Shown: one piece after another, positions 12,974 to 63,780 of the stretch
How the letters are laid out: each line of letters opens with the position of its first letter
How positions within the stretch are numbered: position 1 is the stretch's first letter
IMG/VR virus record: IMGVR_UViG_3300020027_000005
Coordinates: 1 to 64,000 of that record
Length of the DNA stretch: 64,000 bases
Source of the DNA: a virus
Strand: one strand, 5' to 3'
The notes under the pieces: model-generated
What the model saw: only the letters and a program-made list of their open reading frames with translations
Databases searched by the model: none
What the model was told of the DNA's origin: nothing
Made by a program: the position numbers and the translations under genes

Positions 12974-13495
12974 ATGAACGAATTCGAACTGCACGGCCGG
13001 GTTGTCGCACAGGCCTTCTTCCTCGAGCTCGAGAAGATTGCGATGGCCGATCCGATGGACATCGTTCACGGTCTTCGAGCAAACCAGGCTCTCCGGAGTG
13101 CAGCCTCTCCGAGTCTTGTGCAGAAGCTCAAGCCGGGAACGGGGAGCTTCTTCGGGGCCGTGAAGGACAAGGTCCGTCTTCACTTGAAGGGACGGAATGT
13201 TCGGAAGAGTGCGATCAAGGACCTCGATAGCGCTTCCAAGTACACACCGGGGGCGGATGACATCGAGGACAACGCCAACCTCGCCAGGGCTGCTCGAGGT
13301 CGGGAAGCCGAACATGAACTTCACGGGAAGCCGGGTGAGTCGAGCTTCTTCGGCGGAAAGAAGAAGAAGGAGCCGGTGAGGGGTCACCGGGCCAGGCTTC
13401 GGGACCTCGCCTTCGGTGCGGGAATCGGTGGAGCAGGCGTGATCGGCACCAGCATGTACCTGAAAGGTGGACAGGCTGAGCCCGGCTACGAGTAA
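12974..13495 (+). CDS. Basic protein with C-terminal glycine zipper
   Basis: N-terminal AFFLELEKIA; C-terminal LAFGAGIGGAGVIG; GGAG RBS. Confidence 0.8.
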   Translation: MNEFELHGRVVAQAFFLELEKIAMADPMDIVHGLRANQALRSAASPSLVQKLKPGTGSFFGAVKDKVRLHLKGRNVRKSAIKDLDSASKYTPGADDIEDNANLARAARGREAEHELHGKPGESSFFGGKKKKEPVRGHRARLRDLAFGAGIGGAGVIGTSMYLKGGQAEPGYE

Positions 13496-14214
13496 TGGAA
13501 AAGGCCGAAAAGAAGACGAGGGCGGCCCAAGAGCTCGAACTCTGGCGCGACTGGAAGGCCAACCCTTCTGACGCCACGCTCGAGCCCTTGATGGCGTCCA
13601 TGCAAAACGTTGTTCAACAGCGGGTGAACCAGTTTCGTGGAGCTCCCGTTCCACCTGCCGCTGTTCAGGGTTTTGCAAACGTCCAGCTCAAAAAGGCCTT
13701 CCATACCTACAGCCCGGACAAGGGAGCTTCTCTCGCGACCCATGCGAACTGGTACTTGAAGAAGGTCCAGACCTTCGTCATCAAGCACCAGAACATCGGG
13801 AAGATTCCAGACCAGCGAGCGAACAACATCGCCGAGTACCGAGCTGCGAAAGAGGAACTCCGAGAGACGCTGGGGATGGAGCCAGACGCTCTCTCCTTGT
13901 CGGAACATCTCGGCTGGAGTCAGCGAGAGGTCGAGCGGATGGAGGCAGAGCAGAGAAAGGACCTCATCGCTTCCAAGAACCCAGAAGCTGACCAGCTCGC
14001 CGAAACCTACTCGAACCGAGAGAGGGAAGTTCTACGGTACATCCACTACGACCTGACCCCGGATGAGCGCCTGGTCTTCGAGTACACTCTGGGGTTGTAC
14101 GGAAAGCCGCAGATCTCGGCCACCGAGATTTCGAGAAGGATGAGTATCTCTCTTCCGAAGGTCAGCCGAATTCGAGCGAAGATCGACAAGAAGCTTCGTG
14201 CCCGGGGTGTGTAG
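13495..14214 (+). CDS. Sigma70-family RNA polymerase sigma factor (group 3, FliA/SigF-like size)
   Basis: Region 2 (LKKAFHTYSPDKGASLATHANWYL), region 3 (LRETLGMEPDALSLSEHLGWS), region 4 HTH (LTPDERLVF...SATEISRRMSISLPKVSRI). Confidence 0.88.
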   Translation: MEKAEKKTRAAQELELWRDWKANPSDATLEPLMASMQNVVQQRVNQFRGAPVPPAAVQGFANVQLKKAFHTYSPDKGASLATHANWYLKKVQTFVIKHQNIGKIPDQRANNIAEYRAAKEELRETLGMEPDALSLSEHLGWSQREVERMEAEQRKDLIASKNPEADQLAETYSNREREVLRYIHYDLTPDERLVFEYTLGLYGKPQISATEISRRMSISLPKVSRIRAKIDKKLRARGV

Positions 14215-14420: not shown

Positions 14421-14426
14421 GGAACC

Positions 14427-42272: not shown

Positions 42273-42280
42273 GGTTTCTC

Positions 42281-45303: not shown

Positions 45304-45317
45304 CGTTCGCTCCGTGT

Positions 45318-45355: not shown

Positions 45356-45362
45356 TATGCGC
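45350..45362 (-). promoter_or_regulatory. Candidate phage promoter motif GCGCATAAGGTAG
   Basis: Identical 13-mer at 53533-53545; both copies are intergenic and lie about 45 nt upstream of minus-strand starts. Confidence 0.6.
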
Positions 45363-45371
45363 GGAACCGAA

Positions 45372-46571: not shown

Positions 46572-46580
46572 AGGAACCTC

Positions 46581-46628
46581 ACTTAGGATCATTTGAATTA
46601 CGTAGGGTCTTTGGAATTACTTAGGATC
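46581..46628. repeat. Three direct repeats with exact 19-bp period
   Basis: ACTTAGGATC (46581), ACGTAGGGTC (46600), ACTTAGGATC (46619), separated by ATTTGAATT and TTTGGAATT. Confidence 0.85.
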
Positions 46629-47628: not shown

Positions 47629-48293
47629 TTCTTCTTGGGGTTTTCGACCATCAGCCCACGCTCACCGGTCGTGTACCCGATGCTCTCCGGAGTGATCGAC
47701 TGACCTGCAGCACCGGCCTTCCGGGCCCGAGTGACCATGTTGCTGTGGGAACCGTAGGCCGCCTGGGCGTTCGAGCTCTCTGCAGCGAACCGAGCGGCCA
47801 TGGCCGGGTTCACTCCGAGATCTGCGGCCACGTTCATCGCGTCCAGGGTGGCCCCGAGGTAGGACACCTTCCAATCGAGTTCTTTCGAGACCGACTCGAT
47901 GAGTTCCCGGATCTGGGACCGGGTGTACTCCTTGGACTGGTTCTCATGACCATCCGTGAGGATGGCGATCATCACCACTCCGGGACGCTCTTCATCGGGC
48001 ATCCCCGCGAGCTGTTCCTTCGTGGTGGCGAGTCCCCGACCGATGGCATCGAGGAGTGCCGTTCCGCCGCGGGGCGTGTAGTTCTGGTTGTTCCGGAGGG
48101 GGACATCGGCGATCGGGACGAAGCTGTAGACCTCCTCGTAGATGTCGTCGAACTGGATGAACGACATCGTGCACTTCCCGGCCTCGAGCCGCTGGGTCTC
48201 GACCAGGTTGTTGATGCCACCGATGGCGTCGTCCTTGATGGAGTTCATGGAGCCCGAGCGGTCCATGATGAAGGTGATGTGGGTGTAGTTCAT
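47625..48293 (-). CDS. vWA domain protein
   Basis: MIDAS DRSGSM; GGTALLDAIG; ILTDGHEN. Confidence 0.92.
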   Translation of the reverse strand: MNYTHITFIMDRSGSMNSIKDDAIGGINNLVETQRLEAGKCTMSFIQFDDIYEEVYSFVPIADVPLRNNQNYTPRGGTALLDAIGRGLATTKEQLAGMPDEERPGVVMIAILTDGHENQSKEYTRSQIRELIESVSKELDWKVSYLGATLDAMNVAADLGVNPAMAARFAAESSNAQAAYGSHSNMVTRARKAGAAGQSITPESIGYTTGERGLMVENPKKK

Positions 48294-48309
48294 ATCCACG
48301 GCGATCTCC

Positions 48310-49665
48310 CTAGGTTCTGCGCATACCGTTCTTTGCGGCCAGCTTTCCGATTTTCGACTTGATGTCCTCGGAGGACACCCCCGCCGCGTCTGCCGCTTCT
48401 TTCGTCTTTCGAGCGGCGACGTTTACGCTCTCCATGTCGTCGATCCATGAAGTGTCGGAGGTCATGAAGGTCCCGAAGTTGGCATCGAGCCTGGCGTCGA
48501 TGGTCCACGACAAGAACTTCTGAACGTTCCGACCAGCATTGATGATGAGGCCCATTCTTCCGGCCACGTCATCCACGATGACTCGAATCGCCATGTCTGC
48601 TCTTCTTACGATGTGGTCCGAGTGTCCGATCTCTTCTGTCCCCTGACCCTTGAGCTTGATCCCTTCTCGATTCGCGTGGCCGCACGCAACGATGGGAATC
48701 TTCTTCTTGGGGTTCTGGGCGATCTTCTTCACCAGGTCTGCGGTTCGGGCGACGTAGGCGTCTTGTTTCGTGTTGAACTTGTCGCCCATCTCGTCGTCGG
48801 CGATGGCTTTCATGTAGTCGAGAATGACTACATCAGGTTGAATCTCCTCAATCTTCGCTCGAAGACCAGCGATCCCCCCACCTGCTTCCGAGACGATGAT
48901 GTTCTTCTGCTCGTACAGCGAGTCCATCGCCATTTCGAGCGTGTACATTCCGTCCGTTGAGACGTGGCCTTTCGTCATGTCTGGGTAGGACAGGCCGGCG
49001 CGCATCGGGTAAAGGCGCCAGGCAATCTCCTCGCGCGACATCTCTCTGGAGTTGAAGAGGACTCGAAGTCCGCAGGATTCCCAGAAGAGAGCCAGGTAGA
49101 GAAGAAGGAAGGTCTTTCGAGATTTTTCGCGACCGTAGATGTAGATGAAGTTCCCGGGCATCAAGCCCATGGAGTTGTTGTTCAAGTACTCCCACGGCCA
49201 GGCTAGCCCCAGAAGACCTCCGGAACGTTGAAGGAGGTGCAACTGGTTGAGGACTTCTCTTTTGTCCTCGCCTGCGATGAGGTCAGTGTTTCCCTGGAAG
49301 AGTTCGAGACTCAACCCCTCTGCGATCCGGAGCATCTCTGCTTTCGCGACCCAGGGATTGATGTTGTTGGCCTCGGCGATCCTTTTCAGGGCCTCGTTCA
49401 CCTCTTCGTGGAGATACCGAGTTCTGACCTCGTCGATGATGGACTCGATGTTGTTCGTCGGCGGGACGTGGACGTAGGAGGGGACCATCCCTTTGAAGAA
49501 GGTCACATCCGGAACCTCATGGAACCGGTTGTACCTGTCCATGATGATGTCCCAGTACGTCTGGGCTTCCTGACCTAGCATCTTGGCTTTGAAGCCCAAT
49601 TTCAGTGGGACACTAAGATCTCTGCTCTCCAGTACGGATGCGACCAGACTCAGGTCGTAGTTCAC
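48310..49665 (-). CDS. dnaB: DnaB-like replicative helicase
   Basis: GLMPG..YIYGREKSRKT; SREM; VILDY; HANR; SD.I...AD. Confidence 0.85.
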   Translation of the reverse strand: MNYDLSLVASVLESRDLSVPLKLGFKAKMLGQEAQTYWDIIMDRYNRFHEVPDVTFFKGMVPSYVHVPPTNNIESIIDEVRTRYLHEEVNEALKRIAEANNINPWVAKAEMLRIAEGLSLELFQGNTDLIAGEDKREVLNQLHLLQRSGGLLGLAWPWEYLNNNSMGLMPGNFIYIYGREKSRKTFLLLYLALFWESCGLRVLFNSREMSREEIAWRLYPMRAGLSYPDMTKGHVSTDGMYTLEMAMDSLYEQKNIIVSEAGGGIAGLRAKIEEIQPDVVILDYMKAIADDEMGDKFNTKQDAYVARTADLVKKIAQNPKKKIPIVACGHANREGIKLKGQGTEEIGHSDHIVRRADMAIRVIVDDVAGRMGLIINAGRNVQKFLSWTIDARLDANFGTFMTSDTSWIDDMESVNVAARKTKEAADAAGVSSEDIKSKIGKLAAKNGMRRT

Positions 49666-49685
49666 TGGCTCTCCGAGAAAGACCG

Positions 49686-49716
49686 CCCCCCGCTCCGCAA
49701 CTAACGGAGCGGGGGG
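49686..49716. terminator. Perfect 12-bp GC stem-loop upstream of the helicase
   Basis: CCCCCCGCTCCG/CAACTAA/CGGAGCGGGGGG; weak U-tract on the minus strand. Confidence 0.5.
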
Positions 49717-49744
49717 ATGCGGGGTTTGAGGACAAGGGGTTCGG

Positions 49745-49756
49745 CTAGCTTATGCC
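49745..49756 (-). promoter_or_regulatory. Candidate promoter motif variant GGCATAAGCTAG
   Basis: Intergenic, upstream of the helicase; matches GCATAAGnTAG. Confidence 0.5.
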
Positions 49757-49789
49757 GTCAATCTCTTCAGGGTCAACGGCGAGAGATGG

Positions 49790-50083
49790 CTAGCCGAACT
49801 TGACGCCCTGATCCTCGTCTTCGTCTTCCGTGCCTTCCCCATCCCCGGATTCTTGAACGGAGATGATCGACAGGAAATCGTTCTCGATCGACGCACACAG
49901 CGCCTCGGCCAGCTTCCGACTCTCCAGACTCAAGGCGGAGAACAGCGAGAAGCTGACCGGGTTGTAGTTCTCATCGACCAGGACGATCTTCGCCATGTCG
50001 AGGGGGGTCGGTCCGAGTCGTCGGAGCCGCACCTCGCCGACCATGACCCCCGACAGACGTATGTTCCGGATGAAGGGAGTCAC
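49790..50083 (-). CDS. Hypothetical protein with acidic tail
   Basis: Coupled ORF in the operon. Confidence 0.7.
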   Translation of the reverse strand: MTPFIRNIRLSGVMVGEVRLRRLGPTPLDMAKIVLVDENYNPVSFSLFSALSLESRKLAEALCASIENDFLSIISVQESGDGEGTEDEDEDQGVKFG

Positions 50084-50421
50084 TTCTTCATCTCCGGGAA
50101 GAACTTCAGGACGACCTGGTTCGACCGCTCCCGAAGCTCACGCTCTACGTGGTCGTAGCACTCCTGGTAGGTCACTGCGACGGACTCTTCGTCCGGCAGG
50201 CAGGGAAGCGTGCACCACACGGCGACTTCGAACTTCTCGCTTCCGTATTCCTTGGCCATGCCGATGCTGGCCGAGAGTCCGACACTGGCCGTCTTCTCGG
50301 GAGACGCCTTTCCTGGGGGCATTACGATCTCCTCCATTTCATTGTGTTGCTCACGGCCCTTCTTCACCGTGACGCGGTAGCCGGTCTTGAGTGGTGCGGT
50401 AGTTCCGCGTCCAGGATTCAT
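50080..50421 (-). CDS. Hypothetical protein
   Basis: Coupled ORF (ATGA and GTGA overlaps). Confidence 0.75.
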   Translation of the reverse strand: MNPGRGTTAPLKTGYRVTVKKGREQHNEMEEIVMPPGKASPEKTASVGLSASIGMAKEYGSEKFEVAVWCTLPCLPDEESVAVTYQECYDHVERELRERSNQVVLKFFPEMKK

Positions 50422-51008
50422 TCGTCACCCAGACCTTTGAATTGAACGGAGACACTCGGGCTCCGCTCTTTGACGGCGATTCGGTACCTTTCGAGGTTCT
50501 TGATTTTCACCTCTCCAGATGCGATCAGCCTTTCGAGAACATCCGGATAGACGACTCGCCCGACCACGGGGTCGCCATCCACGTAGATCTCTTCCAGTTC
50601 CGGATGGTCTTCCAGAAGTTCCTCGGTTCTGTAGGAGACTGAGAATCTGGTGGAGCTCACTTTGACCTTCACCCGGCCCTGGTCGAAGACGAACGACTCT
50701 TGCAGGGCTTCTTCAGGAAGGTTGTGACAGTAGTTCTTGACGTCCTCGACCTTCCTCTCGATCCCTTTCCCTACCTTCGCGAGTTCGTCCACGAGGTCGC
50801 CGTTGCCTTTCTTCACCTTGGCCTGGAGCTCCTCCACTTTCTTCTGGAGAGTCTGCATGGCCGAAAAGTAGGCGGCGATTTCCCCGAAGGCGTCTTTGTT
50901 GTCCTCCACGAGGAGTGACTGAAGCAGGGCCAGGTGGTCCTGTTCCGAGGCCAGATCCTCCAGCATCTCCTGGAGGGTCTTCGCCTGTTCTGTTGAGAGG
51001 TGGTTCAT
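50418..51008 (-). CDS. Hypothetical coiled-coil protein
   Basis: GAGGAG RBS; coupled to neighbours. Confidence 0.75.
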   Translation of the reverse strand: MNHLSTEQAKTLQEMLEDLASEQDHLALLQSLLVEDNKDAFGEIAAYFSAMQTLQKKVEELQAKVKKGNGDLVDELAKVGKGIERKVEDVKNYCHNLPEEALQESFVFDQGRVKVKVSSTRFSVSYRTEELLEDHPELEEIYVDGDPVVGRVVYPDVLERLIASGEVKIKNLERYRIAVKERSPSVSVQFKGLGDE

Positions 51009-51691
51009 CTTTCTCCTCGATCCGGCGGGATGGTCCCTCGGTAGATGAGGGCGTATGTGTCTGCCACCTCGAATGCCTTCTTCCAGATCTTGAACGAGGA
51101 TTCGACAGGCCCGCCTGGTTTGTCGTTCCAGTTGTCCAGAAGGCGCTGCGGGTGGTGAGAAACGAAACCCGTTCTCGGGATGGGAAGGAGAACTCCCATG
51201 GTCGTGACCTCCACCTGCTGGCGGTGGACGTCATTCAACGCTTTCGTCATGGAGATCGGGCTCGAGCTCAAGGTCTTGAAGGCGACGTCTCCCAGAAGGA
51301 GAACGACGAAGGGGTCCACGACCTCGATGATTCTCTGGAGCCGCGCGGAGCAGGCCTTGATCTCGTCGTTGGCCGGCTTCCTGTCTTGCTTCGGGTTGTT
51401 GATCTCCGTTGCACGACAGCCCACGACATTCGTGAGGTACACGTCTCGTCTGCTCGACCCGATGTAGTGGAGGAGGCTGTCTACGAGCTCCCCAACTCTT
51501 CCTTTGAAAGGCTGCCCAGCCATCTCGTCTTCTTTCGAGGGGGCGTCGCCAACGATGAGGACCTGGGCATTCGGGTTCCCTTCTCCGAAGACCACCTGCC
51601 TCCTGACTCTACCCTCGGGCTGGCAGAGACCACACCGGGTGCAGTCTGTCCAGGCTTCTTGGGTTTCTTGGAGCTTTTGTACTTTATTCAT
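51005..51691 (-). CDS. Uracil-DNA glycosylase, family 4-like (Fe-S)
   Basis: CTRCGLC; VVFGEGNPNAQVLIVGDAPS; GQPF.GR.G; TNVVGCR; HP. Confidence 0.9.
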   Translation of the reverse strand: MNKVQKLQETQEAWTDCTRCGLCQPEGRVRRQVVFGEGNPNAQVLIVGDAPSKEDEMAGQPFKGRVGELVDSLLHYIGSSRRDVYLTNVVGCRATEINNPKQDRKPANDEIKACSARLQRIIEVVDPFVVLLLGDVAFKTLSSSPISMTKALNDVHRQQVEVTTMGVLLPIPRTGFVSHHPQRLLDNWNDKPGGPVESSFKIWKKAFEVADTYALIYRGTIPPDRGER

Positions 51692-53058
51692 GTCCCCCGC
51701 GCGATTTCGAAGGGATAACGCAGGTTTGTCAGCAGATGCCGCATCTTCTTGCAAGCAGTGTGCATGGGCCGGATGAATTCGTCTTCGAACACGATGACGA
51801 CCGGGACTTTCTTGTTGAGCACCGGTCGCTGGATTCTTCCGTAGACCTGCCGAAGCATTCCCTCGTCCGAGATCCCGAAAGGAAGGATGAGACAGTCGAG
51901 ATCCTTTCTATCCAGACCCTCTTTCGCAAGCTGAAGGATGGCGAAAATCAAGTTGCAGTTGTTGAGGACCTCGGCCCTGTCGACGCCCTTGTGCTTTCCG
52001 TGAATCATCCCTGCCTTCACGGAGGGGCGATCCTTGTAGAGTCCGAACATCTTCTCGACGTGTTCGACCCGAGGCGAAAGAAACAAAGGCTTCCTGCCCT
52101 CCAAGAGGAGGGGTTCAATCCAGGAATGGATCTGCGCATTCCGACGTTCGTCTTCGGAGAGCAGGGTCCAGAGTTTCGGGATGTTGAGTTCTCCCAGCCG
52201 GTCCATCGCCTTCGCGAAGTCGACGTGGTCCAGTCGACGGCCTGTTCGAACAAACCAGGTTTCTGGAATCACATCTTGCTCGTAGTTGGAGTAGAGCACT
52301 CCCCCCAGGTGGTGCTGGTAGAGCATGTCGCACCCGTCTCGACGACCAGGAGTCGCGCTCAACCCCCACCGGATTCCCTTGATGAGACCCGCAGTGGTGT
52401 TGAACTCTGGCGCTCCCAGGTGGTGGACCTCGTCGTAGATTCCGACGCCGAAGTGGTTCCTCATTTCTTCAGGGAACTCTTCGGAGTCCATTCTCGAGGC
52501 CAGAGTCTGAATCGAGGCGATGCAGAGAGGATGTTCCCAGTCCCACCTGTCTCCTCGAATTGTTCCGACATCTTCTGCCCGAAGAGTCGTGTGCTCTACA
52601 ATTCGATCCCGCCACTGCTGCTCGAGGTCGATGGTGTGGACGACGATCAGACCGGGCGTCTGAGCCCAGACCCATCTGTCGAGAGCGACTACCGTTTTCC
52701 CCGCGCCACACGCGAGCGAAAGAATCCCGGAGCCTCTGTCCGACATGATGGAAGCGCTGGTGAACTGCACCGGTCCCCGAAGCTCCGAGCGCATTTGTGC
52801 GCCTTCGAGCTTCGGGAACTGTGTGTACGAGGCGTCTTCGATTTCGAAGGGCAAGGTGCCCCACTCGTCGAAGGGGAGGAACTCCCGAGGAACCACGAGG
52901 TGGTTCTCCGTGAGTCCCCAAGCATCTACCCTCGTTCTGTCTGGAAGGTAGAACGTGAGGGAATTCTGAATCCCCTGGATACTCTTCATGTGTTTCAGGG
53001 GGAGCCAGAGCCAGTCCTTTCGGTAGCCCAGCTCCGGACTCAGAGTCTTTACTCTCAT
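51688..53058 (-). CDS. SF2 DEXH helicase (UvsW / ResIII-like)
   Basis: CGAGKT; DEVHH; LSATP.RRDG; EGLD; QVYGRIQR. Confidence 0.92.
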   Translation of the reverse strand: MRVKTLSPELGYRKDWLWLPLKHMKSIQGIQNSLTFYLPDRTRVDAWGLTENHLVVPREFLPFDEWGTLPFEIEDASYTQFPKLEGAQMRSELRGPVQFTSASIMSDRGSGILSLACGAGKTVVALDRWVWAQTPGLIVVHTIDLEQQWRDRIVEHTTLRAEDVGTIRGDRWDWEHPLCIASIQTLASRMDSEEFPEEMRNHFGVGIYDEVHHLGAPEFNTTAGLIKGIRWGLSATPGRRDGCDMLYQHHLGGVLYSNYEQDVIPETWFVRTGRRLDHVDFAKAMDRLGELNIPKLWTLLSEDERRNAQIHSWIEPLLLEGRKPLFLSPRVEHVEKMFGLYKDRPSVKAGMIHGKHKGVDRAEVLNNCNLIFAILQLAKEGLDRKDLDCLILPFGISDEGMLRQVYGRIQRPVLNKKVPVVIVFEDEFIRPMHTACKKMRHLLTNLRYPFEIARGT

Positions 53059-53073
53059 CCTTCCTCCCCGGAA

Positions 53074-53490
53074 TTACTCCCGGTAGTTCGTCGGCTTTCT
53101 TGGGTAGAGCCGTCGTCTCCGGAAGAAGTAGGCGATCTCTTCGCCTGCTGCGAATGCTGCCGCTGCGACTGCGACCTCGAGAACCCGTAATCCCAAGTCC
53201 TTGAGGATTTCTCCGAAGGTTGGCGGTTCCCATTCATGGAGATCTTCTTGTTTTCGAAGGACGGGAACTTCGTGCGCCCCGATTCGATCTCCATCACTGT
53301 TTCTTTCTGCACGGACGATGGTCGGCCCTTGCCTGGTTTCTGGGCGGGGGCTTCCTGCATTTGCAGGTCGCATAACCGGGGATGGTGCTCGGGAAGGTTG
53401 GACACCCGTGAACGAGTACGGGCTTGAGGATGACGTGGTCGGCCCACCACTTCGCAGGCGGGCGAAGATATCCTGCTGCTCGTCCGACAT
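53074..53490 (-). CDS. Hypothetical protein, first gene of the replication operon
   Basis: GAGGTG RBS; disordered N-terminus; Ala-rich hydrophobic C-terminal helix. Confidence 0.7.
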   Translation of the reverse strand: MSDEQQDIFARLRSGGPTTSSSSPYSFTGVQPSRAPSPVMRPANAGSPRPETRQGPTIVRAERNSDGDRIGAHEVPVLRKQEDLHEWEPPTFGEILKDLGLRVLEVAVAAAAFAAGEEIAYFFRRRRLYPRKPTNYRE

Positions 53491-53532: not shown

Positions 53533-53545
53533 CTACCTTATGCGC
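53533..53545 (-). promoter_or_regulatory. Candidate phage promoter motif GCGCATAAGGTAG
   Basis: In the divergent gap heading the whole minus-strand operon. Confidence 0.62.
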
Positions 53546-54664: not shown

Positions 54665-55333
54665 GTGCCTGAGCCTCTTGTTCGCAGAGCCGGTCTTCTC
54701 GAAGACGAACAGGGTCTGCACCTCATCACTCTGAGTGTGCTTCTGCTCGATCTACTCGGGCCGGAGTACTTGTTCTGGACTTCTGAGGCGCTCCGAGAAG
54801 AGCTCCAGGAGAGGTACGGGAAAATCGGCGTCGTGACCTGGGAGCGGGTTCAGGCACTCCGAATTCTCCACGTCCATGACGCCTACTGGCAGGAGTGGGA
54901 AGTCTTCGAGAAGGTCACGGCTGCCATCTGTGGAGAGCCTCCGATCTTCAGCCTGGTTCAGCCACAGGAAGCAGAGGAAGTGTTCATCTCTCTGTCGACG
55001 GCTTCGCGAATCGACCAGCATGACTTCGACGAAGATGTTCGGAGCTACATGGTGGCGGCGTGCCTGAACGACGGGCTCTGGTATTTCGAAGAGCCCGTCG
55101 CAGCGGTCGGAAGTTCGGAGCTCGTGGAGTTGGACACTCGACAGGGGATTCAGAGACCATTCGGGCTCATCTCGGCAGAACTCGAAAAGTCCAACAAGTT
55201 CCGTCCGGAGTCAGACGACCCTGTGCTCACCCAAGTGAATCGGGTTCTAGAGGTGCGGCAGGCGCTTCGACTGTACAATGAGGCGGTCGATAGGCAGCTG
55301 CTCCAGCTCCCACAACTGCTGAAGGGTGTTTGA
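54665..55333 (+). CDS. Hypothetical protein
   Basis: Coupled to the portal-like gene. Confidence 0.75.
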   Translation: MPEPLVRRAGLLEDEQGLHLITLSVLLLDLLGPEYLFWTSEALREELQERYGKIGVVTWERVQALRILHVHDAYWQEWEVFEKVTAAICGEPPIFSLVQPQEAEEVFISLSTASRIDQHDFDEDVRSYMVAACLNDGLWYFEEPVAAVGSSELVELDTRQGIQRPFGLISAELEKSNKFRPESDDPVLTQVNRVLEVRQALRLYNEAVDRQLLQLPQLLKGV

Positions 55334-57246
55334 TGGCGGGCATTGGGACAACTGGATTCGGACCCGGAAGCGCTTCCCGGTTTTCGAACAACCAGTCGAC
55401 AACAGGGAACAACGTTCGATACCCGTCCCCCTGGTGGGACATTTCGAACATGGACCTTCCGAGGTCCGTGAAGCACCTCTTCAAGTGGTGCCTCTACCAT
55501 GTTCTCGTGAATCCACTCGTTGCTCCAGTTGTTCGGAAGATGGCGGCCTACCCCATCACCGAAATCATCATCGAGGACGAGCCGCACGAAGGCTTCCAGA
55601 AGCACAAGGAGCGGTGGGAAGACTGCCTCTTCAAGACCCTGAACATCGACCAGTTTCAGCTGGAGATCGGGCTCGACTACCACGGCTACGGGAATGCCCT
55701 GGTCTCGCTGCTCACTCCGTTCCACAAGGTTCTGACCTGCACCCACTGCAAGTACGAGGAGCGGATCAAAAAGCTGAAGTTCGGTGAGGTGTGGGACTTC
55801 AAAGAGTTCAAGTTCATCCTGCACTGTCCAAAATGCAAGATGAGTGCGACCGCGAAGGTCGACGATGTATCGTACAGGTCTTTCCGGGACTTGAAGATCA
55901 TCCGATGGAACCCGGCAGACATCGACATTGATTTCAACCCGATCACTCGAGTGGCCGAGTACGCGTACAACATTCCGGAACGGGTGAAGACCAAAATCCT
56001 CCGGAAGAACAAGCGCTACTTGGAAGAGATTCCACAGGTCATCTTTCAGGCCATGAAGGAGCAGCGAGCTGTCCTTCTGAACCCAGACAACCTGTACCAC
56101 TTCAAGGCCCCGACTCCGTCTCTGCCGTCGAGTGACGAAGGGTGGGGCTACCCGCCGATCCTTCCGGCATTGAAGGACTCGTTCTACTTGCAGCAGATGA
56201 AGAAGGCGCAGGAGATGGTGCTTCTCGAGCACATGCTCCCACTCGACATCTTCTTCCCGGCTTCAGCCGACGCGAATGCGAATCCCTATCAGATGATCAA
56301 CCTCCACGACTGGAAGCAGCGGGTGGAGGCGGAGATCACTCGCTGGAAATGGGACCCGAACTACAAGCCCATCATGCCCATTCCCGTCGGGCATCAGCGA
56401 ATCGGAGGGAACGGAAAGGCCCTCATGCTCACCCAGGAGATTCGAGCCTGGTCCGAGCACATCATCGCTGGCATGGGAGTTCCTCAGGAATTCGCTTTCG
56501 GTGGTCTGACCTGGTCCGGGTCCAGCGTCTCTCTCCGGATGCTCGAGAACCAGTTCTCGAACTACCGGTCGATGCATGAGAATTTCCTGCAGAACTGGCT
56601 CATCCCCAGGATCGCCAACTACATGGCGTGGTCTGAAATCTCCATCCATCTCCGTGACTTCAAGATGGCCGACGACATGCAGCTCAAGCAGCTGCTGATC
56701 ACGTTGAACCAGATGAAGAAGATCTCCGACAAGACCCTCCTCGCCGAGTTCGGGCGTGATGCGCTCGAAGAGTCGAAGCTGATGGAGCAGGAGATGCAGC
56801 GCCAGATGCAGATGCAGCGGACGCAGATGATGTACACGACCCAGATCCAGGTCGAAGCTTCGGCGATCCAGATGAAGGGCCAGATGAAGATGCAGGAACA
56901 GCAGATGAAGGCCCAGCAGAAGGCGATGGGTGGCCAGGCTGTGGATCCGCAGACTGGAATGCCGATGCAGGGTGCCCAGGGCGGAGGAGTTCCAGGCACT
57001 CCGGCGCAGGGTCCGCAGGGTGGACAGGAAGGCCAGAGCGTCGATGTACGTCAACTCGCAGAGGCGTACGGGAAAAAACTGGCGAACATGCCTCCAGAGC
57101 AGGCAGCCCCGATCCTCCATCGGATGTCCCAGGAGAATCCGCAGCTCCATATGCTCGTGATGCAGGCCATGCAGACGAACACGACTGCGGACATGCGCCC
57201 TCTGCCGGAACAGCGCCCTCCGACACGAGAGACGGGACTGGTCTAG
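55333..57246 (+). CDS. Putative portal protein with Zn-ribbon insertion
   Basis: NPLV..VV.KMA.YP; DY..YGNA.V; LYHFK...WGYPPI; IIAGMGVP.EF..G; Q/M-rich tail. Confidence 0.65.
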   Translation: MAGIGTTGFGPGSASRFSNNQSTTGNNVRYPSPWWDISNMDLPRSVKHLFKWCLYHVLVNPLVAPVVRKMAAYPITEIIIEDEPHEGFQKHKERWEDCLFKTLNIDQFQLEIGLDYHGYGNALVSLLTPFHKVLTCTHCKYEERIKKLKFGEVWDFKEFKFILHCPKCKMSATAKVDDVSYRSFRDLKIIRWNPADIDIDFNPITRVAEYAYNIPERVKTKILRKNKRYLEEIPQVIFQAMKEQRAVLLNPDNLYHFKAPTPSLPSSDEGWGYPPILPALKDSFYLQQMKKAQEMVLLEHMLPLDIFFPASADANANPYQMINLHDWKQRVEAEITRWKWDPNYKPIMPIPVGHQRIGGNGKALMLTQEIRAWSEHIIAGMGVPQEFAFGGLTWSGSSVSLRMLENQFSNYRSMHENFLQNWLIPRIANYMAWSEISIHLRDFKMADDMQLKQLLITLNQMKKISDKTLLAEFGRDALEESKLMEQEMQRQMQMQRTQMMYTTQIQVEASAIQMKGQMKMQEQQMKAQQKAMGGQAVDPQTGMPMQGAQGGGVPGTPAQGPQGGQEGQSVDVRQLAEAYGKKLANMPPEQAAPILHRMSQENPQLHMLVMQAMQTNTTADMRPLPEQRPPTRETGLV

Positions 57247-57366: not shown

Positions 57367-57552
57367 TCAGGCGGGGTCCGGAGTGCTGTCCTCGCTCTTT
57401 CCACGATCGTCAGCGTCATCATCGACGCTCCAGAGCGACTCCCGCAGTCTTTGGTCGACCACGGACTGCCCTTGAGTAGTCTCCTCCTCTTCCTGTTCCC
57501 GCTTCTTCTTCCTCTTCTCTTCCTCGGTCATCGATTCTCCAGAAGCCGACAT
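57367..57552 (-). CDS. Small charged protein (61 aa), antisense islet
   Basis: GGAG RBS; K/R-rich then D/E-rich; preceded by GCGCATAAG. Confidence 0.55.
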   Translation of the reverse strand: MSASGESMTEEEKRKKKREQEEEETTQGQSVVDQRLRESLWSVDDDADDRGKSEDSTPDPA

Positions 57553-57568: not shown

Positions 57569-57577
57569 CTTATGCGC
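57569..57577 (-). promoter_or_regulatory. Candidate promoter motif GCGCATAAG
   Basis: Intergenic, 16 nt upstream of the minus-strand ATG at 57552. Confidence 0.55.
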
Positions 57578-57609: not shown

Positions 57610-60600
57610 ATGTCGAACTTGAGCCCGGAAATGCAGTTCGAGTCGCTGAAGTCCAGCCTCTCCGGGACCCTGAAGGGAATGTTTCCCATCGAGACGAGGG
57701 GTGGGAATTCCATCGTCCTCGAAGAAGTGGAGTTCAAGGACGAGAAGGGCAGCGGAGACCTTCGGGAGCAGCAGAAAGCTCTCCGTGAGGCCAAGAGCTG
57801 GTCCATTCCGGTCTACGGAACCTTCAGCACGAAGAACAAGAACGGAACGGAGACCGATCGGAAGCGCGTTCTGATGATGCACCTGCCTCGTACGACTGAT
57901 CGTTTCGGGTACATCGTCGATGGGAACGAGTACCAGATCCTCAACCAGTTTCGACTGAAGTCTGGTGTGTACCACCGGATGGCTCCAGACGGAGATGCGC
58001 TCGCAGAGTTCAATCTCGCGAACTCGGACCAGTTCGCAAACGGAAAGAGCTTCAAGCTCAGATTGGTTCCGAAGACTGCGGTCTTCTACGTCGACCACCG
58101 CAATTCGAGTGTCCCGCTCTACCCCCTTCTCAAGTCTGTCGGAGTGACCGACGAAGATCTCGAGAAGGCGTGGGGAAAGGAAATCCTCGAACGGAACCAG
58201 GCGAAGGGAGCAGAAGCTCGGTCGTTCGGAGCCCTCCGTCGGGCTGTGGGTGCAGAGCTCCCCGGCGTAGATGGCTCCGAACTTTTCGGGAAGCTGCTGG
58301 CCAAGACGAAACTCCTTCCGGAGACCACGGAGAAGACTCTCGGAAAGGCCTACGCGTCCGTGACTCCGGAGTTGTTGGCCCAGAGCACGAAGCAACTCCT
58401 GGAACTCTCTCGTGGAGCTCGGGCCGAGGACGATAAGACCTCTCTCGAATACCAGGGGATGTACTCGGCGAACGACCTGCTCTCTGGCCATCTCCAGAGG
58501 AAGGCAGGTCTGATCAAAAGGAAGATTCAGACGAACCTGGAGAAGAAGAAGGGTGTTCGGTTGATCGTGCCGACGGACACGTTTGACCAGGCTCTTCGGT
58601 CCTTCTTCTCCACTTCCCTGGTCTCGCAGCCCGAGCAGACGAATCCTCTCGAGATGCTCTCTGGAGCACTCAAGACGACGATCATGGGGGAGCAGGGAGG
58701 CATCAAATCCAGCTTCGCGATCTCCGAGAATGCGAAGCTCGTGAACCCTTCTCACCTGGGATTTCTGGACCCGATCCACACGCCAGAAGGTGAAAAGACA
58801 GGCGTGTCTCTTGCGCTGCCTCTCGGGGCTGGAAAGCGAGGGAACGAGATCGTCTCCACCTTCTGGAATGCGAAGACCAAGAAGCGGCAGGAGATCTCTG
58901 CTGGAGAGGCACTCCACGCCACCGTGGCTTTCCCGGACCAGTACGTTCAGAAGGGTTCGGGGATGTCTCCGGTCGCTCCGAAGGTGAAGGCGACGAAGGA
59001 CGGGAACATCGTCTACGTCAGCCATCGGGAGGTCGACTACGTCATCCCGAGTCCGCGAGCAGTATTCGGAGTCTCCTCGAACCTGATCCCGTTCTTGCAG
59101 AACAACCAGGGCAACCGAGCGATGACAGCAGCTCGGCAGCAGGAACAAGCAGTTCCTCTTCTCTACCGTGAGGAGCCTCTGGTCCAGGTGAAGACCGACG
59201 GAAAGGCGACCTTCGAGGAGATCCTCGGAGAGAGCTCTGCTCGGAACTCCCCTGTGGATGGGGAGATTCTTCGTGTTGAGAGAGACGCCATCATCATCAA
59301 GGACAGCAAGGGCGAGAAGCACGAGATTCAGTTCTACAAGGACTTCGCGCTCAAAGGGAACACCCTCTACGACTCCGACGTGAAGGTGAAGGCCGGAGAC
59401 AAGGTGAAGAAGGGAGACCTTCTCGCCGACACGACGTTCACGAAGAATGGGAAGCTCGCTCTCGGTACCAATCTTCGAACTGCCTACATGGCGTTCAACG
59501 GGTACAACTTCGAGGATGGCATCGTTATTTCTGAGGACGCTGCCAAAAAGCTCACAAGCCTACATGTCCATCAGAAAGACATCCCGTTCGACACGGACAC
59601 TGTGCTCGACAAGAAGAAGTTCCTCTCGCAGTACCAGTATGGGTTCGGGAAGGAGCAGCTCGAAAATGTGGGCGAGGACGGAGTCATCAAGGTCGGCTCC
59701 CGCGTGAAGGAAGGAGATCCTCTCCTCCTGGCTCTGAGGAAGCCGAACGAGTCGCAGCTCCGCAAGCAGATCATGGCCTTCCGGCGAGGGCGTCCCGACA
59801 AGTTCCGGGACGGCTCACTGGCTTGGGACCACGAGGCTCCCGGCATCGTCACGGACGTGGTGAAGCGGGGAGACCAGGTCGTGGTCTACGTGAAGACCGA
59901 GGAGCCTGCGCAGGTAGGTGACAAGCTTGTAGGGCGGCACGGGAACAAGGGAATCATCACGCGAGTGGTTCCGCAAGCAGAGATGCCCTACTCCACGGAC
60001 GCGAAGGGCGAGAAGCAGCACGTCGATATCCTCATGAACCCCCTTGGGGTCCCCGGGCGTATCAACCTCGGCCAGATCCTGGAGACGGCTGCTGGGAAGA
60101 TCGCCACAAAGACCGGGAAGACCTACGAAGTCAAGAACTTCGAACACGGGAAGGACTACCTCACCGACATCAAGGCAGACCTGAAGAAGAACGGGCTCTC
60201 GGATAAGGAAGCCCTCTTCGATCCGACGACCGGAAAGCACTTCGAACAGGAAGTGATGACCGGGAATCAGTACATCTTGAAGCTGAAGCACATGGCTACG
60301 AAGAAGATCTCCGCCCGCTCGGGCTCGGGCGGTGAGGGATCCTTCTACGACGTGAACCATGCCCCGAGTTCGGGAGCCCCTCACGGTGGACAGGCCATGG
60401 ACCCGCTCGGGCTCTACGCCCTGTTGGCTCACGGAGCTCGCGAGAATATCTCGGAGATGTACACCTACAAGTCGGACAAGAACGACGCCTTCTGGGACGC
60501 TATCCGGGAAGGGGCACCGATTCCGCCCCCGAAGACGCCGTTCGTGTACGACAAGTTTCTCAAGTATATGAACGCGCTTCGCGTGGATGTGAAGAAGGAA

Positions 60601-63600
60601 GGGAACTCTCTTCAGCTGATGCCGTTCACCGAACAGCAGGTTCTGGAGATGAGCTCTGGCGAATTGAAGGAACCCTCCCTCGTGGTTCGAGGAAAGGACC
60701 TGAAGCCTCTGCCCGGAGGTTTGTTCGACGAGAAGCTCACCGGCGGAAAGGAGGGAACCCGGTGGACGCACTTCAAGCTCGCCGAGCCTATGCCGAACCC
60801 GATGTTCGAAGAGGCGATCAAGAAGTTGACTGGACTCTCTGACAACCAGTTCAGGAGCCATATCCGGGGCGATGTCGAGGTCAACGGTAAGAAGGGAGGT
60901 GAGGCGGTCGAAGAGCTTCTCAAGCGCATCAACGTGAAGAAGCTGCGAGAGGACCTCGAGTCGAAGATCGGAAAGGCCAAAGGTGCTGGTCGAGACAAGC
61001 TCCACCAGCAGTTGAGAATCGTGAAAGCCTTGGACGAGGCCAAGCTCTCCCCCACGGTCTACATGATGCGGAGTGTTCCGATCCTGCCTCCGATCTTCCG
61101 ACCGGTTTCGGCGAAGCCGGATGGTTCACTCTCGTCTGACGATCTCAACGGCCTGTACAAGGACATCGGGGCCGTGAATGAGTCGCTGACTCTTCTGAAG
61201 TCGTCCGACATTCCGCAGTCGATCGTGGCGCCCACTCGGATGGAGCTCTACGATGGGCTCCGGGCCATGACCGGACTCGGTGGCTCCCTGACTCGGGAGT
61301 ACCGCGGAATCCTGGATATCATCTCTGGGAAAACACGCAAAGGCGAGTCGGCCGGTGAAGGATCCAGCAAGGGTGGGTTCTTCCAAAAGTCCGTGATGAA
61401 GCGCCGTCAGGACTTCTCGGCTCGATCCATCATTACTCCCGAGCCCCGTATGGGAATCGACGAGATCGGTCTCCCGCAGGAGATCGCCTGGACGATGTAC
61501 CAGCCCTTCATCGAGAAGGAGCTCATTCGTCAGGGCTACAAGCCGCCGGACGCTATCGATGAGGTTCGGAAGCGGACTCTGGTTGCGGAGAAGGCGCTCT
61601 TCAGAGCAGTCGAAGACAGACCCGTTCTTCTGAAGCGTGACCCGGTTCTTCACAAGTTCAACGTGATGGCGTTCAAGCCGAGACTCGTGAAGGGAAAGGC
61701 AATCGAAATCCACCCCCTCGTCACCGGTGGGTTCAACGCCGACTTCGACGGCGACACCATGTCGGTCTTCCTTCCGGTCACCTCTCCAGCAGTGAAGGAG
61801 GCCCAGAACCTCTACCCGTCGAACAACCTCTTCAGCCCGACCACGGGCGCGGTCATGTACACGCCCGGTCACGAGGCCCTGCTCGGTACCTACCTGCTCT
61901 CCCTTCCCGGGAAGAAGACTGGAAAACGCTTCAAGAACACCGAAGACGCCCAGTCTGCTCTTCGGAAGGGAGAGCTCAAAAAGACTGACATCGTTCGAAT
62001 CGGTGGGCACGAGACCACTCTCGGCCGACTGGAGATCGAGGCGAAGCTTCCAGCCTGGCTCCAGGAGACAGGGAAGAAGCCGGTTTCTGAGATGCGGATC
62101 TACGACAACAAGACCACCAAGGGCTTGTTGATGCAGGTCGCGAAGCGGGACCATCTCAAGTACGGGGAGATTGCGAACCACCTGAAGGACATCGGAAACG
62201 AGAACTCGACGAGAACCGGATTCTCGATCGGACTCTCGGACTTCGATGTTGTGAATAAGGTGGGTCGAGACAAGATCATCGCGGCTGCAGAAAAGCAGCA
62301 GGTGAAGATCAACAGCTCGAAGCTCTCTGTGCAGAAGAAGGAGGAGAAGGTCGTCGAGGTTCTGACGAAGGCGAAGGACCAGCTCGAGGACCTCTACAAC
62401 GCAGGCCTCAAGAAGGACCCGACGAACATCTACAAGATGATGATCTCTGGTTCTCGGGTGAGTCCCGGACAGTTGAAGCAGATCGTCTCTTCGCCTGCCC
62501 TGGTCTCGGATTCGAAAAACAGAATGGTGCCATATATTATCCCCAGGTCGTACTCCGAGGGGATGGACATGGCGTCGTACTGGACGACCATGCACGGCGC
62601 TCGGAAAGGCGCACTTCAGAAGACCCAGGAGGTCTCGAAGCCTGGCGCACTCTCGAAGCTCCTCGTGAACTCGACCATCAACCAGCTGGTGACCGAGGAG
62701 GACTGTCGAGCCGGGGACGGGATCACGATGTCGGTCGACAACCACGACGTGGCCGACCGCTACCTGGCTGCACCCGCTCGATTCGGAGGAAAGCGAATTC
62801 GGGCTGGAGAGCTGATCACTCCGGAGCTCCTGGCCCAGGCCCGAAAGGCCCAGGTCAAGACGCTTACGGTTCGAAGCCCTCTTCGGTGCCAGGCAGAGCA
62901 TGGTGTCTGCAGACACTGCATGGGTCTGACGGAGGGAGGGAAGAGCTACGACATCGGAACGAACATCGGGGTCATCGCCGCACAGGCCGTAGGTGAGCCT
63001 AGCACCCAGCTCTCACTGTCGGCATTCCACACTGGAGGAACTGTTGGTTCCCGCGGTTCGCAAGCAGTTTCGACCTTCGGCCGGTTGAGCCAACTCCTCA
63101 CCGTTCCTCGGAACATTCCGAACGAGGGGGCTCTGGCGCTTCATGCAGGGAAGGTCACGAGCATCGAGGATGCTCCGCAGGGCGGCCAGTACGTCTACAT
63201 CAACAAGACCCAGCACTACGCCCCTGCGACACAGAAGCTCCAGATCAAAAAGTTCGACACCGTGAAGGCTGGGGATGAGCTCACCGACGGAGTCACTGAT
63301 CCGAAGAAGCTCCTGGCTCTTCGGGGTGTTCGGGACACGCAGGACTACCTGACGAGGTCGATGATGGAGGTGCTTTCGGAAGTAGCACCGGTGAAGCAGC
63401 GCAATGTGGAAGTCGTCGTTAGGTCGATGACTGATATCGCCACGGTCGAGGATCCGGGCGGGCATCCGGACTGGACCTCTGGAGATGTTCGGCCGGTTTC
63501 CATCATCGCTGCATGGAATGCGAAACATCGAGGCAAGGGGAAGCCGGTCAAGTACTCCACTCTCGTGAAGGGCGTGGACGTTCTTCCGAATGAGATGCAG

Positions 63601-63780
63601 GAGGATTGGATCGCTCGACTCAACTTCCAGAACCTCTCTCGAACTCTGACCCAGGCTTCTCGAGAGGGGTGGCACGCCAACATCCACGGCTTCAATCCCA
63701 TTCCGGCCGCAGCACAAGGTGCAGAGTTCAACAGAGCAGAGCGGAAACTCAAGCCGGGGGAACATAAAGGCCAGTACTGA
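57610..63780 (+). CDS. rpoBC: Fused DNA-directed RNA polymerase beta-beta-prime (single chain, 2056 aa)
   Basis: Beta motifs: HLGFLDPIHTPEG, LIPFL, GYNFEDG, GDKLVGRHGNKG, NPLGVPGRINLGQ, KLKH, GGQ. Beta-prime motifs: LPP.FRP, DFSARS.I, NADFDGD (61735-61755), HGARKG, RSP..C...GVC..C.G, AAQAVGEPSTQ...FHTGG. No internal stop. Confidence 0.97.
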   Translation: MSNLSPEMQFESLKSSLSGTLKGMFPIETRGGNSIVLEEVEFKDEKGSGDLREQQKALREAKSWSIPVYGTFSTKNKNGTETDRKRVLMMHLPRTTDRFGYIVDGNEYQILNQFRLKSGVYHRMAPDGDALAEFNLANSDQFANGKSFKLRLVPKTAVFYVDHRNSSVPLYPLLKSVGVTDEDLEKAWGKEILERNQAKGAEARSFGALRRAVGAELPGVDGSELFGKLLAKTKLLPETTEKTLGKAYASVTPELLAQSTKQLLELSRGARAEDDKTSLEYQGMYSANDLLSGHLQRKAGLIKRKIQTNLEKKKGVRLIVPTDTFDQALRSFFSTSLVSQPEQTNPLEMLSGALKTTIMGEQGGIKSSFAISENAKLVNPSHLGFLDPIHTPEGEKTGVSLALPLGAGKRGNEIVSTFWNAKTKKRQEISAGEALHATVAFPDQYVQKGSGMSPVAPKVKATKDGNIVYVSHREVDYVIPSPRAVFGVSSNLIPFLQNNQGNRAMTAARQQEQAVPLLYREEPLVQVKTDGKATFEEILGESSARNSPVDGEILRVERDAIIIKDSKGEKHEIQFYKDFALKGNTLYDSDVKVKAGDKVKKGDLLADTTFTKNGKLALGTNLRTAYMAFNGYNFEDGIVISEDAAKKLTSLHVHQKDIPFDTDTVLDKKKFLSQYQYGFGKEQLENVGEDGVIKVGSRVKEGDPLLLALRKPNESQLRKQIMAFRRGRPDKFRDGSLAWDHEAPGIVTDVVKRGDQVVVYVKTEEPAQVGDKLVGRHGNKGIITRVVPQAEMPYSTDAKGEKQHVDILMNPLGVPGRINLGQILETAAGKIATKTGKTYEVKNFEHGKDYLTDIKADLKKNGLSDKEALFDPTTGKHFEQEVMTGNQYILKLKHMATKKISARSGSGGEGSFYDVNHAPSSGAPHGGQAMDPLGLYALLAHGARENISEMYTYKSDKNDAFWDAIREGAPIPPPKTPFVYDKFLKYMNALRVDVKKEGNSLQLMPFTEQQVLEMSSGELKEPSLVVRGKDLKPLPGGLFDEKLTGGKEGTRWTHFKLAEPMPNPMFEEAIKKLTGLSDNQFRSHIRGDVEVNGKKGGEAVEELLKRINVKKLREDLESKIGKAKGAGRDKLHQQLRIVKALDEAKLSPTVYMMRSVPILPPIFRPVSAKPDGSLSSDDLNGLYKDIGAVNESLTLLKSSDIPQSIVAPTRMELYDGLRAMTGLGGSLTREYRGILDIISGKTRKGESAGEGSSKGGFFQKSVMKRRQDFSARSIITPEPRMGIDEIGLPQEIAWTMYQPFIEKELIRQGYKPPDAIDEVRKRTLVAEKALFRAVEDRPVLLKRDPVLHKFNVMAFKPRLVKGKAIEIHPLVTGGFNADFDGDTMSVFLPVTSPAVKEAQNLYPSNNLFSPTTGAVMYTPGHEALLGTYLLSLPGKKTGKRFKNTEDAQSALRKGELKKTDIVRIGGHETTLGRLEIEAKLPAWLQETGKKPVSEMRIYDNKTTKGLLMQVAKRDHLKYGEIANHLKDIGNENSTRTGFSIGLSDFDVVNKVGRDKIIAAAEKQQVKINSSKLSVQKKEEKVVEVLTKAKDQLEDLYNAGLKKDPTNIYKMMISGSRVSPGQLKQIVSSPALVSDSKNRMVPYIIPRSYSEGMDMASYWTTMHGARKGALQKTQEVSKPGALSKLLVNSTINQLVTEEDCRAGDGITMSVDNHDVADRYLAAPARFGGKRIRAGELITPELLAQARKAQVKTLTVRSPLRCQAEHGVCRHCMGLTEGGKSYDIGTNIGVIAAQAVGEPSTQLSLSAFHTGGTVGSRGSQAVSTFGRLSQLLTVPRNIPNEGALALHAGKVTSIEDAPQGGQYVYINKTQHYAPATQKLQIKKFDTVKAGDELTDGVTDPKKLLALRGVRDTQDYLTRSMMEVLSEVAPVKQRNVEVVVRSMTDIATVEDPGGHPDWTSGDVRPVSIIAAWNAKHRGKGKPVKYSTLVKGVDVLPNEMQEDWIARLNFQNLSRTLTQASREGWHANIHGFNPIPAAAQGAEFNRAERKLKPGEHKGQY

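Follow-up and report, generated by a model that had tools for sequence, protein, structure and literature searches.

The first 64,000 nucleotides (nt) of the IMG/VR virus record IMGVR_UViG_3300020027_000005, referred to below as the window, encode a sigma factor as well as a bacterial-type RNA polymerase (RNAP), which raises the question whether these two proteins work together at a promoter of their own or whether the host takes part in their action. A first-pass annotation of this DNA had proposed a self-contained transcription system, consisting of a fused RNAP, a private sigma factor, and the promoter motif GCATAAG. The window (G+C content ~59%) is the leading 64 kb of a 76.5-kb viral contig with a CheckV completeness of 44%, which implies a full genome of ~175 kb; the source is an uncultured myophage of that size. 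Virion-type genes were located on the plus strand (1 to ~36.5 kb and from 53.5 kb onward), and the replication genes formed a minus-strand block (36.5 - 53.5 kb). The reading preferred here, to which a probability of about 60% is assigned, is that the phage sigma factor and the beta-beta' RNAP form a minimal holoenzyme that starts at an extended -10-like promoter proper to the lineage and that is probably packaged in the virion.

Sigma factor and RNA polymerase of the lineage

The two proteins and the parts of them that matter for their possible interaction are the following (aa, amino acids; ORF, open reading frame):

13495..14214, plus strand: lineage-specific sigma-70-family factor of 239 aa with regions 2.1 to 4.2, among virion genes (Pfam, NCBIfam, family profile)
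13645..13695, plus strand: sigma region 2.2 (aa 51-67), predicted contact with the clamp helices
57610..63780, plus strand: single-chain beta-beta' RNAP, one ORF of 2056 aa, with beta at ~aa 1-995 and beta' at ~aa 1000-2056 (Pfam, NCBIfam)
59749..59790, plus strand: beta flap-tip helix region (aa 714-727; alignment to a solved bacterial beta chain)
61141..61269, plus strand: beta' clamp helices, predicted docking site for sigma region 2.2 (aa 1178-1220; aligned to the Thermus beta' coiled coil)
61735..61755, plus strand: intact catalytic NADFDGD loop (aa 1376-1382)

The fused RNAP of the first-pass annotation was borne out. In the single ORF, Pfam recognized domains of both beta (Rpb2_6 at aa 587-904, E 4e-66) and beta' (Rpb1_1 to Rpb1_5, aa 1126-1946), and the rpoB and rpoC models of NCBIfam spanned aa 248-995 and aa 1089-2028, respectively. 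Both double-psi beta-barrels, the NADFDGD metal loop, and the series of beta and beta' domains that define a bacterial-type multisubunit RNAP were present, and the N, D, F, D, G, and D residues of the loop were all invariant in a 14-sequence alignment of relatives (alignment A2). The RNAP was again encoded by one ORF in most relatives (2014-2101 aa). Several metagenomic relatives had RNAP loci of 8-9.8 kb, suggesting introns or inteins. In the Salmonella phage Arash (130093-141261) and the Vibrio phage D69, the RNAP came in two parts, with the break inside beta' close to aa 1469 of the window protein and 0.6-4.8 kb of inserted genes in between, and homing endonuclease genes were found near the split in the Vibrio phages D181 and D148.

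No homologues of the alpha (PF01000 and PF01193) and omega (PF01192) subunits were retrieved from the contig or from four complete relatives, and all 14 control genomes were matched by these models. An alpha2-beta-beta'-omega core, with alpha and omega encoded alongside beta and beta', was therefore not found; host alpha or omega may be used by the phage RNAP. The surfaces at which a core enzyme receives its sigma factor were kept but remodelled, as had been proposed. Indeed, the clamp string (aa 1178-1220) aligned column for column with the Thermus beta' coiled coil, with DLN-LY kept and the remainder changed, and the flap-tip string aligned with a solved bacterial beta chain, the phage flap tip being three residues shorter. 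The E. coli beta' residues R275, E295, and A302, which are reported to be critical for sigma-70 binding, would correspond to V, T, and G in the phage protein.

Judged from its sequence, the product of 13495-14214 is a genuine but strongly divergent sigma-70-family protein. This follows from three results. First, the Pfam model of sigma region 2 (PF04542) gave no match. Second, as a single sequence, the protein remained below the Pfam cut-offs for region 3 (PF04539; 24.5 bits, cut-off 25.3) and region 4 (PF04545; 16.9 bits, cut-off 24.1), and it matched many NCBIfam sigma models (E 1e-10 to 1e-7) with scores far under their cut-offs. Third, a 29-member family profile matched the solved chains of RpoS, SigB, and SigA from region 2.2 to region 4.2 (best E 5e-12). 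The sigma2, sigma3, and sigma4 domains of the sigma-70 family were thus all recognizable. The family comprised 75 metagenome clusters with 36-76% identity (alignment A1), throughout which a PKVSRIR helix was nearly invariant, and the protein keeps a tryptophan at what is presumably the position equivalent to sigma-70 W433.

The first-pass description of a complete group-3-like sigma factor was upheld for the presence of regions 2 to 4, which the family profile covered, but the term group-3-like applies to the architecture alone. The protein has a suitable length and no region 1.1, but the best models were spread over RpoD, RpoS, SigBFG, RpoH, and FliA, all far under their cut-offs. The divergence of region 2.2 that had been noted agreed with the escape of region 2 from PF04542 and with the variability of this surface across the lineage. 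One complete relative, G033, possessed a second, canonical sigma factor besides that of the lineage (C1:75296-75946, minus strand; PF04542 65.8 bits, PF04545 63.5 bits); an additional canonical sigma factor was not found in the other relatives tested.

Relatives were recovered by alignment searches of IMG/VR, single-protein searches having given one relative each, and records that were at least 90% complete were considered near-complete. The sigma family was present in 37 IMG/VR records, 28 of which also contained the RNAP, including all ten near-complete ones; the nine records without RNAP were all fragments (19-56% completeness). The reverse search, starting from the RNAP, retrieved 50 records, and 12 of the 13 near-complete ones among them encoded the sigma factor. 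Over both search directions, sigma factor and RNAP occurred together in 22 of 23 near-complete relatives, and no near-complete genome had the sigma factor without the RNAP. Similarly, in a collection of 50,697 cultured-phage records, the RNAP was closest to those of the Vibrio phages D69, D148, and D181 and of Salmonella phage Arash (~30% identity), and these four phages were the only ones with homologues of the sigma factor (~26% identity).

In 39 non-redundant genomes, compared by query-anchored alignments, sigma and RNAP distances were correlated (r = 0.907; Mantel 0/2000), two pieces of the RNAP itself correlating mutually at 0.89-0.91. This indicates that the sigma factor travelled with the polymerase, without detectable exchange, and the correlated distances are a sign of co-inheritance, not of physical co-evolution. 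The co-occurrence and co-phylogeny that the first-pass annotation had put forward as checks thus both came out in its favor.

Furthermore, the sigma factor (alignment A1) was co-folded with aa 1000-1460 of the RNAP (alignment A2). The co-fold score was 0.70, the best of three controls scoring 0.00; a mark of 0.70 was reached by 58 of 80 solved complexes and by two of 110 mismatched pairs. The runs shared at least 46% of their contacts, and the partner pLDDT (predicted local distance difference test) was at least 69. The confident interface joined RNAP residues 1184-1212, in the clamp helices, to sigma residues 51-67, in region 2.2, with sigma residues 26-37 and 97-101 also in contact. In the model, the predicted interface is the canonical docking mode of sigma factors, in agreement with what the first-pass annotation would have expected of a co-fold with the phage RNAP. 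Across the lineage, considerable variation was seen in both of the predicted surfaces. The clamp helices of bacteria are highly conserved, and the variability of the phage surfaces fits a private interface better than a sigma factor tied to these conserved bacterial helices.

A promoter-like motif opposite the virion genes

The sites of the motif in the window, together with a small ORF behind one of them, are listed below:

53537..53543, minus strand: GCATAAG core, 46 nt upstream of the ATG at 53490 of the first gene of the replication block
49749..49755, minus strand: promoter-like site 83 nt upstream of the DnaB-like helicase gene, with the hairpin 49686-49716 in between
45354..45360, minus strand: promoter-like site 50 nt upstream of the gene 44194-45303, followed by a hairpin at ~45320-45353
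57569..57575, minus strand: promoter-like site ~35 nt upstream of the RNAP ATG, facing away from it, 16 nt before a small acidic ORF
47342..47348, minus strand: promoter-like site inside the DnaG-like primase ORF, with a good fit to the extended consensus
40873..40879, minus strand: promoter-like site just downstream of recA, in the called 5' end of ORF 40372-40989, fitting the extended consensus
57367..57552, minus strand: small, highly charged ORF of 61 aa between the portal and RNAP genes, behind the motif

GCATAAG occurred seven times in the window, each time on the minus strand, versus 1.26 occurrences expected, and none of 100 shuffles reached seven. Four of the seven sites were intergenic and upstream of minus-strand genes, three of them heading genes of the replication block; the site at 10305 is probably due to chance. 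In the relatives G002 and G003, whose proteins are ~55% identical to those of the window, GCATAAG was again found almost only on the minus strand, and a site occupied the equivalent place, ~40 nt upstream of the RNAP start, with its orientation away from that gene. Alignment of the sites of the window, G002, and G003 gave the extended consensus TTnCnC-GCATAAG-G, and all 18 hits of a position weight matrix in these three sequences were on the minus strand, two lower-scoring ones departing from the core. The motif stood out in the site alignment and with the weight matrix, but not in a k-mer screen with a maximal-order Markov model. Canonical sigma-70 promoters were not enriched between 40 and 58 kb (one found versus 3.4 expected). 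The motif that the first-pass annotation placed at the head of the replication genes is thus real, conserved, and strand-specific, but it is read on the minus strand, so that transcription from the fragment 53490-53580, suggested for an in vitro assay, would run leftwards.

In AT-rich, more distant relatives, the element upstream of the RNAP was GGTATAAG, the consensus also being given as tGGTATAAGA. In G030, with the RNAP on the reverse strand, GGTATAAG was counted 27 times on the forward and not once on the reverse strand; in G033, with the RNAP on the forward strand, there were six forward and 25 reverse occurrences. The bias was thus opposite to the RNAP strand in both genomes, controls giving 3-7. 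The 27 sites of G030 had the consensus ttntGGTATAAGAntaT, without conservation at -35, and several of them lay directly behind a hairpin and T run, 20-40 nt ahead of a ribosome-binding site and ATG. In this genome, the motif was present in 13 of the 77 upstream regions of plus-strand genes and in none of the 31 upstream regions of minus-strand genes. In form, the motif corresponds to an extended -10 element, as in TGnTATAAT, but its last position (-7) is invariably a G, and a -35 element is missing. As far as its sequence goes, it looks like an extended -10-like promoter element.

Some further features accompany the sites. The hairpins at 45320-45353 and 49686-49716 (minus strand) are strong and rich in G+C, the first being without a T run. 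Placed behind the motif and ahead of the start codon, they would belong to the 5' untranslated region, where they could stabilize the RNA, be processing sites, or attenuate transcription. On the plus strand, the called start of gene 53540-54661, the ATG at 53540, is inside the complement of the motif, CTTATGC, and therefore this gene probably starts at the ATG at 53576, which has a GGAG 9 nt upstream. A charged, low-complexity ORF (43-61 aa) that diverges from the RNAP gene behind a motif site was also seen in G002 (near 62242) and G003 (near 85172); its position, size, and charge were conserved in the three genomes and its sequence was not. This ORF may code for an early host-takeover protein.

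A proposed dedicated holoenzyme and its alternatives

According to the preferred reading, the sigma factor would bind the phage polymerase by placing its region 2.2 on the phage's own clamp helices, so that sigma factor and beta-beta' chain would form a holoenzyme of two polypeptides without alpha or omega. This holoenzyme would initiate at a compact, extended -10-like promoter (TTnCnC-GCATAAG-G in the window, tGGTATAAGA in AT-rich relatives) that carries a G in place of the bacterial T at -7 and that has no -35 element. The promoter would stand before the genes for replication and other non-structural functions, whose strand is opposite to that of the virion genes. As for the likeliest timing, the holoenzyme would be made late, packaged, and injected with the DNA to transcribe the motif-bearing early or middle genes. 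This timing is suggested by the position of the sigma and RNAP genes in late virion-type modules and by the detection of both proteins in virions of a cultured relative. We infer that the sigma factor binds the RNAP, that no host partner takes part, and that this enzyme reads the motif; the pair may likewise be orthogonal to the host enzyme and co-packaged in the phage of the window. A bolder version, in which a widespread lineage carries a complete, minimal holoenzyme of bacterial type (one beta-beta' chain with a private sigma factor and neither alpha nor omega) that is carried in the virion and injected, that makes early transcription, starting at extended -10-like promoters with G at -7, independent of the host, and whose sigma-core pair is naturally orthogonal to that of the host, is tentative and has somewhat less than even odds.

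The detection in virions concerns Arash. Mass spectrometry of its virions gave more spectra for the beta part of the RNAP (Gp206) than for any other protein; it also detected the beta' part (Gp216), the sigma factor (Gp10, with 100% coverage), and, in abundance, an SNF2 helicase (Gp217), whose gene follows the beta' gene (PMC10585845). The sigma factor is annotated as RpoS in that study, which proposes no dedicated holoenzyme, RNAP link, or promoter (PMC10585845). The SNF2 helicase might be a RapA-like polymerase partner or accessory factor. As a universal third component it was rejected, for it was detectable in only 13 of 23 near-complete relatives (E 1e-10).

Several observations weigh against a dedicated holoenzyme. 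The relative G072 (160.5 kb, with terminal repeats, 100% complete) encodes the RNAP and the SNF2 helicase and has no sigma factor of the lineage family, even in a lenient search up to E 10; its RNAP is the most divergent one (28% identity). Correlated distances are to be expected for any two vertically inherited core genes. A search of G030 for a motif of the virion-strand (late) genes, which include those for RNAP and sigma factor, was negative, its best k-mer being only the complement of the motif already known, located between divergent genes; the promoter programme is therefore incomplete. Neither GCATAAG nor GGTATAAG was enriched in the 80 kb of Arash that were examined. Ribonucleotide reductases and RNA ligases, evidently non-structural enzymes, were likewise present in the Arash preparation, whose authors allow for a carry-over of abundant proteins (PMC10585845), so that virion association falls short of proof in Arash. 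Finally, the closeness of the motif to the bacterial extended -10 element (TGnTATAAT) leaves the host's primary sigma as a possible reader.

A first alternative is that the sigma factor redirects the core RNAP of the host, as T4 gp55 and the SPO1 sigma factors do, the phage beta-beta' enzyme working without it, with another factor or with none. Such redirection is the usual role of phage sigma factors and the rule for large phages that encode one (PMC7824862, PMC13282480). It would also suit the complete G072 genome with its RNAP and no lineage sigma factor, and the co-fold pass may reflect likeness to the abundantly solved holoenzymes, that is, family likeness only, instead of binding by the phage pair. 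However, sigma factor and RNAP co-occurred almost perfectly in both search directions, with no near-complete genome having the sigma factor alone, and region 2.2 is divergent and variable between phages although the bacterial clamp helices that it would have to meet are conserved, the phage clamp helices being equally variable. This makes the redirection of a host core unlikely.

Alternatively, the holoenzyme of the host with its primary sigma factor may read the motif for the early genes, while the phage RNAP and sigma factor serve another class of genes from promoters not recognized here. Indeed, tGGTATAAG equals TGnTATAAT except for the last base, and the RNAP and sigma genes themselves are without the motif and on the other strand. 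Yet the G at -7 was invariant at every exact-core site, and -12 is also a C in the sub-lineage of the window. The T at -7 is among the two most important bases for sigma-70. Moreover, the motif was kept across phages ranging from 37% to 67% G+C, and thus probably with different hosts, and a phage enzyme needed only late would leave its presence in Arash virions unexplained. Reading by the host is hence improbable too. That the motif is a strand-specific signal other than a promoter (a site of RNA processing or stability, for example, or a signal for replication or packaging) is very improbable, because, although strong hairpins precede the start codon at two sites (45320-45353 and 49686-49716) and two other sites lie within called ORFs, sites were found behind terminator hairpins with T runs, 15-85 nt ahead of start codons, always co-oriented with the downstream gene and in the form of a -10 element.

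Genomic setting, known systems, and meaning

The genes around the sigma factor and the RNAP, and those of the replication block, are as follows:

3483-4562, plus strand: homologue of Arash gp6, a virion protein (tblastn)
4578-6848, plus strand: homologue of Arash gp8, a virion protein (tblastn)
6845..8614, plus strand: SNF2-family helicase (PF00176) in the virion block, homologue of Arash gp217 (Pfam, tblastn)
23311-23973, plus strand: baseplate-wedge gene, homologue of Arash gp12, in the same strand block as the sigma gene (PHROG match and tblastn)
23983-26586, plus strand: baseplate-wedge gene, homologue of Arash gp13, in the same strand block as the sigma gene (PHROG match and tblastn)
29172-31853, plus strand: homologue of Arash gp14, a virion protein (tblastn)
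55330..57246, plus strand: portal homologue, directly upstream of the RNAP gene as in Arash (tblastn to Arash gp204, E 3e-86)
40989..53490, minus strand: replication block with genes for RecA, family A DNA polymerase, DnaG-like primase, VWA protein, DnaB-like helicase, UDG-family protein, and SF2 helicase (Pfam)
40989-42098, minus strand: RecA (Pfam)
42281-44197, minus strand: family A DNA polymerase (Pfam)
44194-45303, minus strand: gene preceding that of the family A DNA polymerase
46627-47628, minus strand: DnaG-like primase (Pfam)
48310-49665, minus strand: DnaB-like helicase (Pfam)
51005-51754, minus strand: UDG-family protein (Pfam)
51688-53058, minus strand: SF2 helicase (Pfam)

The position of the sigma gene inside a virion operon, as first annotated, was supported by the PHROG matches to baseplate-wedge proteins and by synteny with Arash gp6, gp8, and gp12-14; inside the virion block, the start of the gene and the stop of the preceding one share a single base. 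Gene order was conserved between the window and Arash both for portal and RNAP and for sigma factor and baseplate. PHROG searches with 20 proteins of the virion block gave nothing beyond one helicase and the two baseplate matches, the SNF2 helicase was the sole Pfam match among ten further proteins, and the ORFs downstream of the RNAP (63.7 - 76.5 kb) had no Arash homologues. The 212-nt gap behind the sigma gene (14215-14426, plus strand) probably holds one small ORF, its GTG overlapping the sigma stop.

With regard to known systems, the RNAP lineage of the window resembles the mReC clade of large tailed phages from metagenomes and IMG/VR, with beta and beta' alignable to cellular RNAP in a deep clade and with T4-like structural markers such as baseplate wedge and portal (PMC7481178). 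The lineage may belong to the 97 contigs of that study, in whose supplements the IMG identifiers searched matched reference sets only; the study makes no mention of a sigma factor, promoter, or virion packaging (PMC7481178). Arash, D69, D148, and D181 share with the window the closest RNAPs, the sole cultured homologues of the sigma factor, and the orders portal-RNAP and sigma-baseplate, but their RNAP is split within beta' whereas that of the window is one chain.

The virion and non-virion RNAPs of phiKZ and AR9 are likewise phage-encoded, beta/beta'-like enzymes without alpha or omega, and their virion enzyme, which is synthesized late and packaged, uses a short AT-rich consensus to transcribe early genes. 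However, these enzymes consist of 4-5 highly divergent polypeptides and have gp68 or gp226 instead of a sigma-70 subunit (PMC13282480, PMC7824862), whereas the window encodes a single chain clearly alignable to bacterial beta and beta' together with a recognizable sigma factor, so that the system is not phiKZ-like. T4 gp55, SPO1 gp28 and gp34, and the sigma factors of RNAP-less jumbo phages offer a parallel in combining a phage sigma factor with a compact promoter without -35, such as the T4 late TATAAATA, but these phages encode no RNAP, whereas the sigma factor of the window has been passed on together with a phage RNAP that has divergent docking helices.

The rpoBC fusions of Helicobacter and Wolbachia also have beta followed by beta' in one polypeptide, and the NCBIfam fusion models were the top matches of the phage chain. 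Its score was 550 bits versus a cut-off of 5372, it is ~800 aa shorter than the fusion models (2839-2890 positions), and the cellular enzymes use cellular alpha, omega, and sigma. The crAss-like gp66 and N4 virion RNAPs are carried in the virion, injected, and used for early-gene transcription, but they are single-subunit or unrecognizably divergent two-barrel enzymes without a sigma factor.

Part of this is already known, namely that there is an mReC lineage, which the RNAP of the window resembles, and that the Arash sigma factor has been annotated and reported in virions. A dedicated sigma-core-promoter system appears to be undescribed in the literature searched, subscription journals being outside its coverage. 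A comparative analysis and a review of 2026 distinguish phages with a multisubunit RNAP that lack a sigma homologue from large phages with a sigma factor that lack an RNAP and borrow the host core (PMC7824862, PMC13282480). The lineage described here breaks this clean divide, as it has both RNAP and sigma factor, inherited together, and a promoter-like motif of its own. Cultured relatives exist, namely Arash on Salmonella Typhimurium and the Vibrio phages D69, D148, and D181, so that the question can be tested directly. If a true holoenzyme is formed, its two polypeptides would make it the smallest known sigma-dependent multisubunit transcription machine and a natural test of what alpha and omega are for. 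It would also provide a ready-made sigma-core-promoter set that may be orthogonal to that of the host, and it bears on whether phage RNAPs came from cells along with their initiation factor.

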